A DNA stretch of 64,000 nucleotides from a virus (taxonomy: Duplodnaviria > Caudoviricetes): IMG/VR virus record IMGVR_UViG_3300013947_000035, positions 1 to 64,000 of that record; one strand, written 5' to 3'. Below the pieces are notes generated by a model that worked only from the letters and a program-made list of their open reading frames with translations, was not told where the DNA came from and searched no databases. The first letter of the stretch is position 1. Each line of letters opens with the position of its first letter. Both the position numbers and the translations under genes were made by a program. Below, piece after piece: positions 3,604-55,069 of the stretch.

Positions 3604-4737
3604 ATGAAAATTTTTGCAAAAACAGTAGAGCAAGAGGCTCTCGACCAAATAAATAAAATGGCAAATTCGCCCGTCGGACAAAATGCACATATCCGTATTA
3701 TGCCCGATTGTCACGCTGGCGCAGGTTGCGTTATCGGCACAACTATGCGTATAATAGATAAGGTTTGTCCGAATCTCGTCGGCGTTGATATCGGCTGTGG
3801 TGTAGATTATGTCGAGACCGATATCGATTTCGCTTCGAGATGTGACGAACTCGATTCCGTTATCAGACAAAATATACCCTGCGGAATGGAAACGCATAAA
3901 ACCCCGCAAGATTACGATTTTAGCGACCTTCGTTGTTGGGATAAACTCAAAAAAGAAACCCAAGACCTCGCTAAAACCGCTCTCGGAACACTTGGTGGCG
4001 GAAACCACTTCATCGAAGCATACGATAACGGCGGGCTTTCCGTTCATAGCGGCTCTCGAAATATCGGTTGGCGCGTTGCCGAATACTATCAAAATCTCGC
4101 AATCAAGCATTGCAATCACGATTTGTATTTGAAACAGCTCGAACAACTCAAAAATATAGAACCGCAAAATCGTCAACAGTGGCTCAATGAACACAAACTC
4201 AAAGTCGATAAAGAACTCGCTTATCTCGAAGGCGACGATATGCAGGACTATCTTCACGACATCGCCGTTATGCAACGTTTTGCGAATGCGAACAGAAAAC
4301 GTATGCTTGATGTAATCGTTTCAAAAATGGGCGGCGTCATTAAAACGCATATAAACTCGATTCACAACTATATCGATGTCGAGAACAAGATTCTTCGCAA
4401 AGGCGCAATTTCGGCGCTTGACGGGCAAATACTCGTGATTCCGCTCAATATGCGCGACGGATTGCTCATATGCAAAGGTAAAGGCAATCCCGATTGGAAT
4501 TTTTCTGCGCCTCACGGGGCTGGAAGACTCTATTCGCGTAAAAAGGCAAAGGAACTCTTTACCGTTGACGATTATGCGAAAGCAATGGACGGAATCTATA
4601 CCACCTGTGTGAATGAAGATACTCTCGATGAAGCGCCGTTCGCGTACAAGGACTACAAGGAAATAATGGAATGCGTCGAACCCACTGTCGAGATTCTCGA
4701 AAGACGAATTCCGATATATAATTTTAAGGCGAACTGA
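3604..4737 (+). CDS. rtcB: RtcB family RNA ligase
   Basis: IMPDCHAG, GVDIGCG, GTLGGGNHFIE, HSGSR, HGAGR, DEAPFAYK motifs. Confidence 0.95.
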   Translation: MKIFAKTVEQEALDQINKMANSPVGQNAHIRIMPDCHAGAGCVIGTTMRIIDKVCPNLVGVDIGCGVDYVETDIDFASRCDELDSVIRQNIPCGMETHKTPQDYDFSDLRCWDKLKKETQDLAKTALGTLGGGNHFIEAYDNGGLSVHSGSRNIGWRVAEYYQNLAIKHCNHDLYLKQLEQLKNIEPQNRQQWLNEHKLKVDKELAYLEGDDMQDYLHDIAVMQRFANANRKRMLDVIVSKMGGVIKTHINSIHNYIDVENKILRKGAISALDGQILVIPLNMRDGLLICKGKGNPDWNFSAPHGAGRLYSRKKAKELFTVDDYAKAMDGIYTTCVNEDTLDEAPFAYKDYKEIMECVEPTVEILERRIPIYNFKAN

Positions 4738-41300: not shown

Positions 41301-42706
41301 CTCCATCGACTGATGGCGGTCATGCTTATTATCGTTATACTGCAAGCAATGTTCCGAATGAGGCAGATGCAGACATTCCCTATCAAGAAGAAATTGTTTC
41401 TAAACAAACTACTTCGACATATCAGACTATAACTAAAAATATGTTTTTAGAATATAATACCGATTATATAAACACGAATAAAGAATCGGAAATTTTGCCA
41501 TTAAACACGCATAAAATTTTCAGTGATAAAAAGGTGTCCGATGTATTTTTTATTATAGGCGGCGGAGATGAATCTATACTTAGAATTGATGTCACAGACA
41601 TTACGAGTATTAATAATGGTGGCAATGTTGAAATTTTGGACGGTATAAAATCAATCAATTATTGGTATTTTGATTTTAATGCTGCATATAAAAAGGATTA
41701 TTCTGAAAGAAACGACATAGTATATACCTACATGCCTGAAAAATCAGGATATCATTTTGTGTTCGGAATTAATATCTACACAAAAGATATAAAGAAAGAA
41801 GGTGACAAACGTTATATAGATATTTATATCACAAAAATGACAAACAGAGATGAACGCATATTTGATAATATGGGAAGGCAGATTGGAATTATACATAATT
41901 GTATAGATTCAAATGGCAAATATTCTGTTCCAACAAAACAAAAATATGACGAGATATTGGAAATCCCTATCGATTATGATAGAGCTAATTTTATTACTTT
42001 TGGCGGAGACAAAAATGTATTTATAGAAGCAAAAAGAATCGATTCCCCAAATAAGCATGCGCCAACAGGGATATTGGAAGACGGAACAAAAATATATTAT
42101 GGGGACACAATAGAGCTAAATATTACACCCCAAAATCCACAATATTTATTAGGGTATGTCGAAATTAATAATGTAATAGAGGCACAAGATGCTTTGAGAT
42201 ACACAACCACAATTAATATTGTAGGCTCTGTAGATATAAAAGTATATTCTGATAAAATGACATTAATTGGATGGAAGACAGTGTTTATTGGTTCGCAGAC
42301 AAAAACGGTAAACATGGAACTTATAAACGACCCGTTAACGCAGGAAATGCCGACAGTAGGCACAACTTCAGCTGATATTCTACTTTCAGATTTTGGCATC
42401 GATAAAAACGTTATAACAAATCCCATAAGAATAACAGGTATTATTTCTATCGGTGTCGGTGGGGCTGAAATTAACAAGACAGAAGATATTGCATTGTCGG
42501 AATCTGAATTGACTAATGAATATGTTCTAAAAACAAATAAAGTAACAACAACAGTAGGAATCAATAATTATAGCGTAGGAGCGTCCATAAGCATGAAAGC
42601 GGTCGATGGGAAATTAAGTATACGACTTAATATGAACAAAGCAAGAAATCTTACAATCGCAAACAGCTCTGCGGAAATCATGATAACCAAAGTTGAGCAA
42701 ATCTAA
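38342..42706 (+). CDS. large tail/baseplate hub protein
   Basis: 1454 aa, beta-rich, N-terminal EYNETLDSG hub-like motif. Confidence 0.7.
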   Translation: MNLTVRIHDKEYKEEVAQGITFSEEYNETLDSGTVRLTHVIGQIKDLKPYDDVYIYDSAYDFDDNISQWRIGGNLKDEPFYRHLLVDQFSEEIINLSEGIFAYTIELFSETKGLETVQCPNISVTQPLNVKKKVDIYTYLVRFTNLYSPKYKTLDRNNAGCWVYAQKYTISPELEEVFSGFYSQDFTLSNPNLRDILSTLMITKDMIPYVKDNVIYAKDISKRTDTYDIVEEQNAGRVNRIVGQMSSADYCDGVRRQYSDALSSDGICNFVEYLGFRNNDNALMTLDNMCVNTTGKIYTVDEFLACYYKKGQIYYAGTGEWTDVYFLCEQDITPLIKLDTEWNMLNQDWRELEESAPPITIEELSRYKIGTVYYSIGSNKILGWGTRYNKYKANDLSVVDITKTYIENIISFVDKYNPLGTSTPNGIIENYIKTNNLDWDSELCKFAASNDMSIYGFNNLTSVSKLKTIAFKIKYKGFYDGAIVHSRDKGKDIFYQNDNVSSSLTLLEKDGINQKEKLNRFANKTHIINGRLDGVNYSVKNLLQLGYTGSIGDDDDVIIYRREYSFYNNYISVSYAGVQDYVLKNFYTSVYAKYRINQLMSYNESVSRAENKKIILLLSKNKKYKDEQTFFKIIDDNEQRVESKEFFSAFVGQNESSNINTVLIKSGMGKQYFVDGKTFTSGNNLCFNMFMPDNISGGNSITKYMSNYQLLSEKPSEDGEYYVGSLQEWYDIVDDNETGSIAELSFELSNRKVSPIKVISADNTSKIDIFYQYSMSLPKNEVVVSNETRNVIKISSEKYYKDNKERINLTLQIEPISIEKNDIIMGNYFVKLSNLIFPYDNGKNEQDIEIPTKDVDEGYSMNVYFYFLGLGERGTQISIAASPDTAGDEDADDEFYQSLLGLIWSNTISGDPQYVYRIPFEANITFTGNNNSRFTFNATHIGYIDADGKGVEPSPGPGYPIYLWGNGMDGGTPIGGSPAIRFTTISSPSTDGGHAYYRYTASNVPNEADADIPYQEEIVSKQTTSTYQTITKNMFLEYNTDYINTNKESEILPLNTHKIFSDKKVSDVFFIIGGGDESILRIDVTDITSINNGGNVEILDGIKSINYWYFDFNAAYKKDYSERNDIVYTYMPEKSGYHFVFGINIYTKDIKKEGDKRYIDIYITKMTNRDERIFDNMGRQIGIIHNCIDSNGKYSVPTKQKYDEILEIPIDYDRANFITFGGDKNVFIEAKRIDSPNKHAPTGILEDGTKIYYGDTIELNITPQNPQYLLGYVEINNVIEAQDALRYTTTINIVGSVDIKVYSDKMTLIGWKTVFIGSQTKTVNMELINDPLTQEMPTVGTTSADILLSDFGIDKNVITNPIRITGIISIGVGGAEINKTEDIALSESELTNEYVLKTNKVTTTVGINNYSVGASISMKAVDGKLSIRLNMNKARNLTIANSSAEIMITKVEQI

Positions 42707-49071: not shown

Positions 49072-49248
49072 AACTTTTTCAAAGAAATTTGGCATAAAGT
49101 ATTGACTTTCTCGGGCAAAGGGTATAATATCGTATCATAACCTCGTATTATTGAGTAGTGCCGATAATTCGAGAAATACTAATAATGCGAGGGCAATCCT
49201 CTAATCAAGACCACGCACTACAATAGGTCAAGATTGGAGGATTTTTTT

Positions 49249-50316
49249 ATGAAAGCATTCAAGACCAGAATATACCCAAATGCGGAACAAACCGTTTTAA
49301 TCGAAAAGACTTTCGGTTGTTGTCGCTTTGTCTATAATAATGGTCTTGAATGTAAAATTGATGCCTATAAGAAAGATAAAACGAACCTATCTGCTTATGA
49401 TTTGATAAAAAGAATCACAACTCTTAAAAAAGAATTCGAGTGGTTGAAAGAAGTCGAATTGCACACATTGCAGCAGTCGATTCTTGATTTAGAAAAAGCA
49501 TATAAGAACTTTTTTAGAGAACATAAGGGATTCCCTAAATTCAAGAAGAAAGGCGACAAAGATAGTTTTAGGACGTTTAATATGCGTTTTGTATCACGTC
49601 ATTTCATTTATCTTCCGAAAATTGGAGCGGTAAAAATTGCCGAAAAGATAAAAAAGAAGTGGAGCATACATAATGCGACTATAAGCAAAAGAGCAGGGAA
49701 GTATTTTATCTCGCTATTAATCGATTACGAATCACCAAAAGTCCAAAAGACAGGTGAAGTTGTCGGAATCGATTTAGGCATTAAGACATTTGCGACCTTG
49801 TCAGATGGAACTAAATATGAGAACCCAAAGACATTAAGCAAATACGAGGACAAGATTGCAAGATATCAACGACAATTAAGTCGAACTCAAAAAGGAAGTA
49901 ACAATCGCAAAAAGGTTAAAGAGAAATTAGCCCGATTGCATTTGAAAGTATCTAACATTCGGCAAGACTATTTGCATAAAATGAGCCGCGAGATAGCCAA
50001 TCGTTACTCGTTTGTTGCGATAGAGGATTTAAATATTGCAGGAATGGTTAAGAATCACAATTTAGCCAAGAGCATATCCGATTGCAGTTGGGGCGAATTC
50101 GTCCGTATGCTCGAATATAAATGCTCGTGGTATGGTTGTGAACTGCGTAAAATCGGTCGATTTGAACCCAGTAGCAAGTTGTGTTCAAATTGCGGATATA
50201 AGATGAACGAAATTCCGTTAAATATCCGAAAATGGACTTGTCCTAATTGCGGGACGCACCACGACCGAGACGTAAACGCCGCAATAAATATTTTGAATAT
50301 AGCACAAGAAAAATAA
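49249..50316 (+). mobile_element. tnpB: TnpB RNA-guided endonuclease (IS200/IS605 or IS607 OrfB type), no TnpA nearby
   Basis: RIYPN HTH, GIDLG, IEDL, CSNCG/CPNCG Zn finger, HDRDVNAA; RuvC D-E-D intact. Confidence 0.95.
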
Positions 50317-52576: not shown

Positions 52577-53311
52577 ATGAATAAGAAAGTTTTGCATACG
52601 ATGATAATCCTCTGCTGGGTGTTTCTTGGCGCATATGCGTTATTAAAATTAATCCCGCAGTTGGCTGATAAATTTGTGATTGCTGTCAATAACGAGCGTA
52701 TAGTTGAGGCGGGTAATTTTGTTGACGAACACGTTTGGTTACAACAAATCGTATATGGACTGACGACATTGCTTACATATCATTTCTATTTATGCGCTTG
52801 TTGTCATAAATGGCGTTTGTCTTGGAAACAATACATCGTACTTATTGTTGCCATTATTGCCGCAAACACATTGAAATATTATGTCTCTGAAATCGCTGTC
52901 CAAGTAAATGTATTAATAATGGTAATTTATCCGTTCTTATTGAAAAGCGATTATAGAACATTTATAATTATATTCATAACACATTCTGTTGGGCAATTAT
53001 TGATTAGTTTTATTCGAGGGGCAGAAATGTCGCTTGCAGACTGCAATACATTGACGTGCCTAATATGTTGTTTAGATATGTATGTATGGCTATTGCTATA
53101 CTACTTATATGCAAATCTATATAAAGGAGAAAAATTTATGGGTAACGTTGCGCCTCCGTTTTGGGGCAAAATGAACAAAGAAATCGACGCAGAAATTGCG
53201 TCTCTCGACAAAAAGATTGCCGAGTGCAAGGACACAGAACAACGCAAGAAATACGAAGCTAAAAGGGCTGAATATGAAGAAATGCGCGTTAAAACTTCTG
53301 ACGAGAAGTAA
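52577..53311 (+). CDS. multipass (~6 TM) membrane protein with charged C-terminal tail
   Basis: hydrophobic segments; internal AAAGGAG-ATG at about 53138. Confidence 0.8.
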   Translation: MNKKVLHTMIILCWVFLGAYALLKLIPQLADKFVIAVNNERIVEAGNFVDEHVWLQQIVYGLTTLLTYHFYLCACCHKWRLSWKQYIVLIVAIIAANTLKYYVSEIAVQVNVLIMVIYPFLLKSDYRTFIIIFITHSVGQLLISFIRGAEMSLADCNTLTCLICCLDMYVWLLLYYLYANLYKGEKFMGNVAPPFWGKMNKEIDAEIASLDKKIAECKDTEQRKKYEAKRAEYEEMRVKTSDEK

Positions 53312-53924
53312 AATCGTTATAAAGCACGCCCTGCACTGGTTATCGGTGCAGGGTAAACTTTATTTGCGAGGGATTCCACAATTATTCTTGGTAACAATAT
53401 TGTTGATTCCTGCCGCATATTTTACAGGCAAATATATCGAAGCAATTTTCCAAATTATTGCGTTGTTTGCGCTTCGGTATAAATTCCCTAAAACTTATCA
53501 CGCCGATACGACTATGAAATGTACTTTTGTGACGTTAAGTATCGGGTATCTTGCAATTCCGAGAGTTTTGCCTACGAACGTTGCTTTGTTTAGCGCGATA
53601 TTTGTCAGTTTCGTTATCGCATTTCTCTCGTGGTTGGCACAAGAATTTATCGACCGAAAGAAACGCATAGCCGAACTCGAAGCCGCGCCTGTTTCCGAGC
53701 CATTATCGTTCACAACTTGTTCGCGAGAAGAATTCGATATGTTGTGTGTAAATAACGGAATCAAGTCAAGCCGCATAGAATATGTTTGGGATTTACTTCG
53801 AGGCAAATTATCAACATCTGAAATGATGGACAAATATTGCGTAGCCGAAAAAACAATTAGTCAAGACCGTTGGCGATACAGAAAAAGATTTTCTAACCCT
53901 ATTGACAACGGCGAATTGAAATGA
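53274..53924 (+). CDS. AgrB-like membrane peptidase fused to a C-terminal HTH
   Basis: LRYKFPKTYHADTTMKC (His...Cys+7) within a 4-TM region; C-terminal STSEMMDKYCVAEKTISQDRWRYRKRF. Confidence 0.7.
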   Translation: MKKCALKLLTRSKIVIKHALHWLSVQGKLYLRGIPQLFLVTILLIPAAYFTGKYIEAIFQIIALFALRYKFPKTYHADTTMKCTFVTLSIGYLAIPRVLPTNVALFSAIFVSFVIAFLSWLAQEFIDRKKRIAELEAAPVSEPLSFTTCSREEFDMLCVNNGIKSSRIEYVWDLLRGKLSTSEMMDKYCVAEKTISQDRWRYRKRFSNPIDNGELK

Positions 53925-53930
53925 TATTAT
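53902..53930 (+). promoter_or_regulatory. promoter of the RNA island
   Basis: TTGACA-N17-TATTAT with TG extension. Confidence 0.8.
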
Positions 53931-54008: not shown

Positions 54009-54064
54009 CGGCGACTCGCATCTTGTAGTGCGAATTGTAGGGGCAGTACCTACGTTGCCGACCA
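54009..54064 (+). ncRNA. 56-nt D-armless tRNA-like RNA
   Basis: CGGCGAC/GTTGCCG acceptor stem plus ACCA, TCGCA/TGCGA arm, GTAGG-GGCAGTA-CCTAC T-arm. Confidence 0.65.
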
Positions 54065-54231
54065 GTAACCCTGCGGGTAGTGCGCATACCCGTTGTCCGA
54101 AGCTATTGGCGGATAGAGTTTAATATGGCATCGTGTTCGCGACCGATGCTATGACCACGCAAGCAGTTTTGTACTATGCACTATATGTAACATAGCCTGA
54201 ACGGTTCTCGACAAAAAGTAAGCTTGCATTT

Positions 54232-54312
54232 GGGGTTGAGAATGGTTTCGATTGCACATAAAGCCGAAGCGCACTGTGCAAGAAACGAGTTCGATTCTCG
54301 TCAACTCCACCA
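54232..54312 (+). ncRNA. 81-nt tmRNA-like RNA: tRNA-like domain only, no tag ORF
   Basis: GGGGTTG/CAACTCC acceptor stem with G3-U70, GGTTTCGA D-loop, TTGCACA/TGTGCAA helix, ACGAG-TTCGATT-CTCGT T-arm, ACCA. Confidence 0.8.
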
Positions 54313-54502
54313 GCGGGTTTTTCACTGTTTCCAAGCCGTCAAAAAAACAGCGCGGGGCGTATTGATGTTTGCGCTCTGTAAAATAACATCATCGCACTTT
54401 GTCCGTTTCGGCGAATAAATGTGATAACGGAACGAAGCGCGAGGGGCGACGATAGCCCTGCAGTATCGCGTATAGAAAGGTGACACGCTATTCCTTTCAA
54501 AT

Positions 54503-54578
54503 GCAGGTATGGCGCAATCGGCAGCGCAACTGATTTGTAATCAGTCGGTTGTCTGTTCGAGTCAGACTTCCAGCACCA
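54503..54578 (+). tRNA. tRNA-Thr(UGU), two acceptor-stem mismatches
   Basis: GCGC D-stem, ACTGA-TTTGTAA-TCAGT anticodon arm, GTCTG-TTCGAGT-CAGAC T-arm, CCA. Confidence 0.85.
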
Positions 54579-54810
54579 CCACTTTCACAATTCGAGAGAG
54601 CCGACTGTTTTTCGAAAAATTTTGGTCGATTTTCTCATTTCTATTGATTTATTTATGAATTTGTGTTAATATAAGTTTGTGTGAAGTGCTTATCAAGTAT
54701 AAACCGTGCCGCCATTGCAGTGGCGACCAAAACACACTGTACTATGCACTATATGGGAGCATAGCCGAACAGACTGCACCTTGCGCTAAATATTAGTGAA
54801 GGTCAAGATA

Positions 54811-54845
54811 AACCTGACACTATATGTGTCGGGTTTTTCTTTTTT
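54811..54845 (+). terminator. intrinsic terminator ending the RNA island
   Basis: AACCTGACAC/GTGTCGGGTT hairpin plus T-tract. Confidence 0.75.
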
Positions 54846-54955: not shown

Positions 54956-55069
54956 ATGGATATTTTTGAAGAATTAGGTCTAATCCAAGTCGAGCCGAAT
55001 TCAATATATATCGTGCTTGATGACGATGAACATATATTTCTAATTTTGGAGGAAAACTCAAATGGTTAA
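54956..55069 (+). CDS. 37-aa acidic ORF
   Basis: AAGGCGG RBS; overlaps the start of the next gene. Confidence 0.45.
   Translation: MDIFEELGLIQVEPNSIYIVLDDDEHIFLILEENSNG

Follow-up and report, generated by a model that had tools for sequence, protein, structure and literature searches.

The DNA analysed here, referred to as the window, comprises the first 64 kb (64,000 nucleotides) of a 78,008-bp virus record (IMG/VR record IMGVR_UViG_3300013947_000035; Caudoviricetes), whose completeness is estimated by CheckV at 100%. At positions 54232-54312 of the plus strand lies an 81-nt element that, as judged from its sequence, is a phage gene for the complete tRNA-like domain (TLD) of a transfer-messenger RNA (tmRNA), without the mRNA-like domain and not permuted. 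We refer to it as the mini-tmRNA. The gene was recognized by the Rfam model RF00023 (56.3 bits), by an independent family model named R1 (78.9 bits) and by direct reading of the sequence, from which the following parts were delimited; the hairpin within the loop is tentative.

54232-54312 (+): mini-tmRNA gene, tRNA-like domain only, 81 nt
54232-54238 and 54302-54308 (+): acceptor stem, 7 bp, with G3.U70
54239-54251 (+): stemless D-loop, 13 nt, with the 3' end GGUUUCGA
54252-54258 and 54275-54281 (+): helix P2, 7 bp
54259-54274 (+): loop of 16 nt in place of the pseudoknots and the tag frame, with UAAA and then a GCC...GC mini-hairpin (tentative P3)
54282-54284 (+): linker, 3 nt
54285-54301 (+): T-arm, with the loop UUCGAUU
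54309-54312 (+): discriminator A and encoded CCA (ACCA)

The Rfam tmRNA model RF00023 aligns through its positions 1-374 to 54232-54312 (+) with 56.3 bits and an E value of 2e-19, above the gathering score of 47 bits. In this alignment the posterior probabilities are close to 1 over the D-loop, the T-arm and the base of helix 2, and 14 nt stand for the 308 model positions that hold the pseudoknots and the tag frame. The features that characterize a tmRNA in this domain, namely a stemless D-loop with GGNUUCGA, a canonical T-arm and the base of helix 2, are all present, as are the alanine identity features G3.U70, A73 and the 3' CCA. An initial annotation of this DNA, made from the letters alone, had listed the tRNA-like elements of a tmRNA and had identified the gene as a tag-less tRNA-like domain. 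Every one of those elements was found in its place, and the identification is borne out by Rfam, by the independent family model and by the covariation described below.

The remaining parts of a tmRNA are missing. The mRNA-like domain, with its resume codon, tag frame and in-frame stop, is not in the mini-tmRNA, which has 16 nt between the strands of helix 2; no sequence able to form the pseudoknots PK1-PK4 is present within the 81 nt, and helix 2b-d of the full-length tmRNA is without a counterpart in the RF00023 alignment. A mini-tmRNA that lacks resume codon, tag frame and pseudoknots therefore cannot perform trans-translation or serve as a messenger. A two-piece (permuted) tmRNA was also considered and rejected: the score with the corresponding model, RF04321, is 16.6 bits, below its cut-off of 47, and the order of the parts is the standard one, in agreement with the non-permuted gene of the initial annotation.

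The Infernal-type comparison with the Rfam tmRNA models, proposed in the initial annotation, gave the score above the cut-off already mentioned, but the ARAGORN search proposed together with it called neither a tmRNA nor a tRNA at the mini-tmRNA, its sole call in the region being the neighbouring tRNA-Thr. ARAGORN requires a tag frame for a tmRNA and is unusable for mini-tmRNAs. BLAST searches with the region and with the 81 nt against 50,697 phage records returned solely tRNA-type partial matches, and when the sequence was folded without constraints, the minimum-free-energy structure contained the acceptor stem and the 7-bp helix but no T-arm (z -2.7). The locus could also be read as a tRNA-Ala gene of aberrant form, or as a tRNA-like fold that arose by chance, given that the tRNA and tmRNA models form one Rfam clan and that archaeal control genomes give sub-threshold tmRNA matches. 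But the element has no D-stem, anticodon arm or anticodon and draws no tRNA call from ARAGORN; it carries the tmRNA-type D-loop motif and the helix-2 junction; RF00023 is retained for it in the Rfam clan competition, at 56.3 bits; and R1 gives the neighbouring true tRNA 18.8 bits, as opposed to 78.9 for the mini-tmRNA. We consider this reading extremely unlikely.

A search of phage metagenomes for homologues with covariation had likewise been suggested, and a family was indeed found, with covarying acceptor, P2 and T stems. The viral contigs with mini-tmRNA genes of 63-90 nt number at least about 150. With a strict pattern that describes tmRNA-type tRNA-like domains of 60-97 nt, matches were obtained on at least 119 viral contigs; since 22 of the 26 matches of a partition scan were already among these, the true total for the strict pattern is about 140. 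A second pattern, with the acceptor stem left free, added members with C-G at position 4:69. When the strict pattern was applied to one genome each of 185,579 prokaryote species, 23 places were found, mostly on contigs of metagenome-assembled genomes. It should be mentioned that part of the sequence is prescribed by the patterns with which the family was assembled, and that the IMG/VR contigs carried no host labels. The genes fall into length classes of 63-73 and 78-85 nt, with a few at 89-90 nt; the window copy belongs to the longer class. All 44 carriers tested exceed the Rfam tmRNA threshold (49.6-81 bits). The covariance model R1 was seeded with 33 other viral mini-tmRNAs, the window copy being left out, and still assigned 78.9 bits to the latter (E about 3e-17), far beyond chance. 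A tRNA gene is located within about 100 nt on the same strand at 16 of 60 other mini-tmRNA loci.

Several carriers deserve separate mention. Four Firmicute assemblies contain a full-length tmRNA (351-390 nt) plus minis on other contigs, and the 98.8-kb viral contig IMGVR_UViG_3300007515_000003 (locus L003) has both a full-length tmRNA at 88065-88440 (-), with 128 bits, and a 73-nt mini at 41861-41933 (+). At loci L004, L020 and L034 ARAGORN stretched the minis to 'tmRNAs' of 324-343 nt with implausible tag peptides, and at L033 and L044 it called a 91-nt 'tRNA-Glu' over them; at these five loci Rfam finds minis of 67-85 nt.

The family was used to examine selection on the structure. The search patterns fixed acceptor pairs 1-4 and both loops, whereas acceptor pairs 5-7, T-stem pairs 1-4 and P2 were unconstrained, so the covariation evidence rests on the latter. 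Pair counts were taken from an alignment of one D-loop length class (A3) and from a model-fitted alignment (A4); two MAFFT alignments (A1 and A2) were left unused because of gaps at the 5' end and a misaligned acceptor strand. In an alignment of 33 sequences, 91.9% of the cells pair, compared with 66.5% in shuffled alignments, none of 500 of which reached 91.9%; when the partners were slid by 1-3 columns, pairing fell to 44-52%. The acceptor and T stems pair in 100% of the cells and include three and four covarying pairs, respectively, and helix P2 has changes on both sides at all seven of its pairs. The same pairing picture was obtained with an alignment of 89 sequences, which was fitted by the model and hence to the structure. 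The most conserved parts across the family are the tmRNA-specific D-loop and the T-loop.

Seven sister contigs of the window phage were identified through the neighbouring proteins, with 59-85% identity. In one of them, L165, the syntenic position is occupied by a canonical mini-tmRNA (R1, 76.6 bits; Rfam, 56.9 bits), which differs from the window copy by a compensatory change of one P2 pair from A-U to G-C and by two changes to wobble pairs. Two others carry derived mini-tmRNA-like genes (L158:2580-2660 and L159:4881-4961) that score 52 and 47 bits with R1 and are below the Rfam tmRNA cut-off. Both keep G3.U70 and G4.U69 in the acceptor stem, whose pairs 5-7 have changed in a compensating manner. 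Three double compensatory changes in P2 separate the L158 copy from the L159 copy. Both also retain the loop motif described below, and their outer P3 pair shows a compensating swap relative to the window. Neither a mini nor a full-length tmRNA was found in the other four sister contigs, which were covered over about 4 kb to either side of the neighbouring gene, and no full-length tmRNA was found at the same place in the sister phages.

These data bear on the possibility that the gene is a non-functional remnant, either a decayed host ssrA or a piece of a tmRNA gene from a phage attachment site. The idea has some basis, as integration at tmRNA genes is common, fragments of ssrA are found in prophages (PMC9004378, PMC10865867), and the mini-tmRNA is absent from some close relatives. 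But attachment sites hold the 3' part alone, and the window has both halves, paired; the 78-kb genome has neither a tyrosine integrase nor a resolvase-type (PF00239) serine recombinase; about 100 distinct sequences share the trimmed architecture and the size classes, with covariation in three stems; a syntenic sister phage, L165, shows compensatory change; one viral record has a full-length tmRNA and a mini together; and the related case of mycobacteriophage DS6A, discussed below, involves a phage that integrates at tRNA-Lys and not at ssrA (PMC10865867). The initial annotation had named homologues without compensatory changes as the sign of a decayed ssrA or an attachment-site remnant, and compensatory changes are what the homologues display. 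The remnant explanation is thus largely refuted by the covariation in the aligned sequences, and we regard it as very improbable. Because of the covariation, the compensatory change, the lack of an integrase or resolvase and the conserved promoter-to-terminator unit described below, the mini-tmRNA is a maintained gene, under structural selection where it is present, and not scrap or decayed ssrA.

Selection can also be followed at the alanine identity elements. In a scan that left the acceptor free, and which gave 65 distinct matches with a stem of at least 6 bp, G3.U70 was found in 63, A73 in 64, G1-C72 in 64 and G2-C71 in 63. Pair 4:69, which comes next in the stem, is free to vary and was G-C in 50 and C-G in 12 of these matches. 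According to the identity rules of alanyl-tRNA synthetase summarized in PMC3968760, a fixed wobble G3.U70 beside a covarying 4:69 is, at the level of the compared sequences, a signature of selection for recognition by this enzyme.

The loop that replaces the pseudoknots and the tag frame is conserved as well. An 'AA..CC' motif at the start of the loop is found in 46 of 65 members of the longer class, compared with 4.8 +/- 2.0 in shuffled loops, and a stop triplet (TAA, TAG or TGA) occurs within the first 7 loop nt in 54 of 65, compared with 19.1 +/- 3.4 after shuffling, although the 65 sequences are related and their independence is overstated by these statistics. In the window the triplet is UAA, at 54259-54261. 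In the Rfam consensus and in four full-length Firmicute tmRNAs, PK1 is followed by a conserved UAAA segment to which the loop motif bears a resemblance, and the same UAAA segment is present in E. coli tmRNA (primer sequence, PMC2481249); the likeness may reflect homology or mere A-richness. For the P3 hairpin, pairing was seen in 57-64% of the cells, and a crude test gave a best-stem score of 3.15, compared with 3.21 for shuffled loops. P3 is not statistically supported as a real helix and is kept as tentative.

The stop triplet is of interest for the second of two functions put forward in the initial annotation, namely tag-free rescue. A charged mini-tmRNA, together with host SmpB and EF-Tu, would enter stalled ribosomes and take the nascent chain on its alanine without adding a degradation tag; release would then occur through host ArfA, ArfB or Pth, through drop-off, or through reading of the stop triplet at the loop start by a release factor. 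If this were the case, ribosomes would be recycled and phage proteins spared. The strictly kept alanine identity set and CCA end, the preserved acceptor and T stems, which are compatible with EF-Tu, and the frequent location of mini-tmRNAs within tRNA arrays, that is, beside genes that support translation, are in line with rescue, as are the stop triplet itself and the existence of natural tmRNAs with two-residue tags (PMC11915505). But the triplet is absent from 11 of the 65 members and from DS6A, which is too many for an essential codon. In addition, helix 2 points away from the decoding centre (PMC3968760), so that the A site is probably out of reach for a loop separated from the elbow by 7 bp, and none of 45 carrier records encodes an RF-1/ArfB-type or Pth protein. 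Finally, the sole experiment on such an RNA, of the DS6A type, gave inhibition and not rescue, as far as the citing articles report it. We therefore treat tag-free rescue as a serious but clearly less likely possibility than the competition with host tmRNA considered below. A special form of it, in which the loop UAA is shown to a release factor and the protein is freed with a single added alanine and no degron (a 'zero-length tag'), appears improbable; if true, it would mean that phages carry a tag-free trans-translation that protects their own proteins while recycling ribosomes.

The mini-tmRNA is located in a 1.1-kb stretch without long open frames, which appears to be organized as a single non-coding RNA unit. 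Besides the mini-tmRNA, the following features of the unit were predicted.

53902-53930 (+): sigma-70-type promoter-like site at the head of the RNA unit, 11/12 matches, with an extended -10 TG (consensus scan; conserved in L158 and L159)
54009-54064 (+): tRNA-like element of 56 nt, with ACCA after a 7-bp acceptor-type stem (conserved in L158 and L159)
54503-54578 (+): tRNA-Thr(UGU), 190 nt downstream of the mini-tmRNA (ARAGORN; Rfam tRNA, 60.3 bits)
54810-54836 (+): intrinsic-terminator-like hairpin and T run at the end of the RNA unit (consensus scan; conserved in L158, L159 and L165)

Promoter-like sites are no more numerous in the region than in shuffled sequences, and the weight of the site at 53902-53930 comes from its conservation and position. 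The promoter, the terminator and much of the interior of the unit are kept in the sister phages. For the segment of about 170 nt between the mini-tmRNA and the tRNA-Thr (54330-54500, +), no Rfam match was obtained, and L159 has a copy of about 90% identity; a further small RNA or a spacer for processing may lie here. The 56-nt element at 54009-54064 contains one internal hairpin with UGU in its loop, plus a T-arm-like hairpin; in L158 and L159 it has pair-preserving changes and ends 4 nt before their mini-tmRNA-like gene. Two more short ACCA-ended hairpins are found at 54124-54157 and 54710-54729 (+). The notion of an 'island of ACCA-ended RNAs' was examined and is not significant by count, as the three 7-bp-stem-plus-NCCA elements compare with a mean of 0.9, and a maximum of 4, in shuffled sequences.

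The elements at 54009-54064 and 54124-54157 are nevertheless relevant for a further explanation, according to which the RNA acts outside trans-translation, as an alanine-accepting, CCA-ended tRNA mimic that sequesters or diverts a host factor active on the acceptor ends of tRNAs or on tmRNA, for example a defence toxin, a nuclease or RNase R, perhaps together with the other ACCA-ended small RNAs of the unit and the phage RtcB. The conservation of the 56-nt element in L158 and L159 would fit such a decoy, and so would the fact that these two phages keep acceptor, P2 and loop by compensatory change but lose the canonical T-loop, as if neither the elbow nor SmpB mattered; RtcB is encoded both by the window phage and by DS6A (gp76). 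On the other hand, the number of stem-plus-NCCA elements lies within the shuffle range, RtcB occurs in a mere 2 of 44 other carrier records, and no target is known. The conservation of the D-loop and T-loop above all other parts of the family points to SmpB and the ribosome. We consider a decoy function unlikely.

Outside the unit, the genome encodes a portal protein, a major head protein, tail proteins, a DNA methyltransferase and, at 3604-4737 (+), an RtcB-type RNA ligase (phrog_1075, E 1e-127). The nearest relatives of the portal protein (28-31% identity) belong to phages of Anaerostipes, Clostridium, Streptococcus and Solobacterium; for this reason the host is likely a Firmicute, which is a guess from distant protein relatives. 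A TnpB-type protein with OrfB_IS605, Cas12f1-like TNB and HTH domains is encoded upstream of the mini-tmRNA at 49234-50316 (+); a Pfam scan of open reading frames in the interval 49.2-57.7 kb detected no TnpA-type transposase. The RNA unit is directly preceded, at 53196-53924 (+), by a gene for a membrane protein that matches AgrB weakly (25 bits, cut-off 23) and is 59-83% identical in five sister contigs. An open frame of 37 codons at 54956-55069 (+), preceded by a ribosome-binding-site-like sequence, runs into the following gene, which starts at 55062, and is near-invariant in the sister phages.

We searched the carriers for a partner gene that might indicate the function. No SmpB match was obtained in the 78-kb genome or in 44 other carrier records, and RF-1/ArfB-type and Pth proteins were found in 0 of 45 carrier records; with RtcB included among the proteins searched, no partner emerged by co-occurrence in the 44-45 carrier records. 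With neither SmpB in the phage genome nor RF-1/ArfB-type or Pth proteins in the 45 carriers, the mini-tmRNA must use host factors.

Among the possible functions we place first a competition with the host tmRNA for SmpB and stalled ribosomes, by titration of SmpB and, once the RNA is charged, by dead-end entry into ribosomes; we hold this reading with about even confidence. It is ranked first because the sole experiment on such an RNA found inhibition: as summarized in PMC4131195 and PMC11915505, an RNA of the DS6A type strongly inhibited E. coli tmRNA whether chargeable or not, 'perhaps by titrating SmpB'. All known tmRNA partners except S1 bind the tRNA-like domain, and SmpB requires the elbow formed by the D-loop and the T-loop, with helix 2 projecting like a long variable arm (PMC3968760). 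As far as its predicted structure goes, the mini-tmRNA is reduced to the partner-binding surfaces of this domain, all of which it retains. In the proposed mechanism the RNA would be transcribed together with tRNA-Thr from the conserved promoter-to-terminator unit and trimmed in the manner of a tRNA; the host alanyl-tRNA synthetase would recognize it through G3.U70 and A73, host SmpB would bind it at the D-loop/T-loop elbow, and the outcome would be less tagging and degradation of proteins during infection. We infer expression, charging and an inhibitory effect for the window copy in its own host. The two functions offered in the initial annotation, sequestration of SmpB and tag-free rescue, both appear reasonable, and the first agrees with the DS6A-type experiment.

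Several observations weigh against competition with the host tmRNA. Inhibition was seen without charging, yet the alanine identity is strictly kept, and a pure sponge would not need the identity set; because of this strict conservation, charging and ribosome entry probably matter. The conserved loop motif has no role in a simple sponge model. L158 and L159 have a non-canonical T-loop and, in the D-loop, AG in place of GG, which should weaken the elbow needed by SmpB, and the form found in these phages may be a variant that no longer makes an SmpB-binding elbow. The mini-tmRNA is accessory or dispensable within its lineage, being absent from four relatives. Finally, the gain to the phage from blocking ribosome rescue is not evident. 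The fixed alanine identity and the conserved loop motif are thus two family-level facts that titration of SmpB leaves unexplained, and they provide concrete mutants.

Trans-translation is the main bacterial pathway of ribosome rescue and quality control, and a drug target. If the mini-tmRNA blocks tagging or rescues ribosomes without a tag, it would be a natural, genetically encoded modulator of this process. The window offers a clean example from a likely Firmicute phage, with a defined transcription unit, and the sister phages form a series in which the gene is kept, is replaced by a derived form or is lacking; this series is material suited to knock-out and complementation.

The kind of RNA described here is already known, and the concept of a phage TLD-only tmRNA is not new. 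'Mycobacterium phage DS6A (TLD only)' was listed by Hudson, Lau and Williams in 2014 (PMC4131195), and the 2025 tmRNA database paper (PMC11915505) discusses DS6A together with plastid forms of about 65 bp without a coding sequence and with tag-less mitochondrial tmRNAs. The DS6A RNA has the identifier tmID 11587 at the tmRNA Website, and Mao et al. 2009 is the work cited for it in PMC4131195 and PMC11915505. The initial annotation had named only the mitochondrial tag-less tmRNAs as precedents; it missed DS6A, and the novelty that it implied was too high. In the literature searched we found no description of a broad family of phage mini-tmRNAs.

The DS6A gene (JN698994 28478-28560, 83 nt) scores 60.5 bits with R1 and has the same loop type as the window copy. 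Both are phage-encoded RNAs of about 80 nt, with an acceptor stem carrying G3.U70 and A73, a stemless D-loop, a T-arm, a short helix 2 and an A-rich loop with a small CCG..CGG hairpin, and with no tag frame or pseudoknots. An SmpB-like gene is absent from what was searched or annotated in the two phages, and an RtcB-type ligase is present in both. The window copy thus shows what characterizes the DS6A type: a complete domain in standard order, a short loop, a length of 81 nt, no phage SmpB, and compensatory changes. They differ in several respects. DS6A infects Mycobacterium, whereas the portal relatives of the window phage infect Firmicutes; the window gene encodes its CCA, whereas the DS6A gene is without CCA and ends in ACTA; and the D-loop sequence is GGUUUCGA in the window and GGUGGUCGA in DS6A. 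In the window the first P2 pair is U-A and the linker is GAA, in contrast to C-G and GAC in the majority of the family. The window copy is part of a non-coding RNA unit with tRNA-Thr, and DS6A is a temperate phage, whereas no integrase was found in the window genome.

With the bacterial one-piece tmRNA (SsrA), the window copy shares the alanine identity of the acceptor, the D-loop and T-loop motifs and the base of helix 2, but it is without helix 2b-d, the four pseudoknots, the resume codon, and the tag frame with its stop, that is, the 308 model positions mentioned above. The organellar tag-less tmRNAs, known from jakobid and oomycete mitochondria and, at about 65 bp, from Mallomonadaceae plastids, are reduced to the tRNA-like domain in the same way as the window copy, and their SmpB is encoded elsewhere (PMC11915505, PMC4131195). 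These forms, however, are the sole tmRNA of the organelle and a product of reductive evolution, whereas the phage RNA is an extra copy beside the full-length tmRNA of the host. Lastly, the full-length or two-piece tmRNAs of phages, such as those of Bxz1-type mycobacteriophages, Bacillus phage G and marine myophages such as Melnitz, are of the ssrA family and are often located near tRNA genes (PMC4131195, PMC9004378); they encode a tag and are presumably capable of trans-translation, in contrast to the mini-tmRNA of the window.

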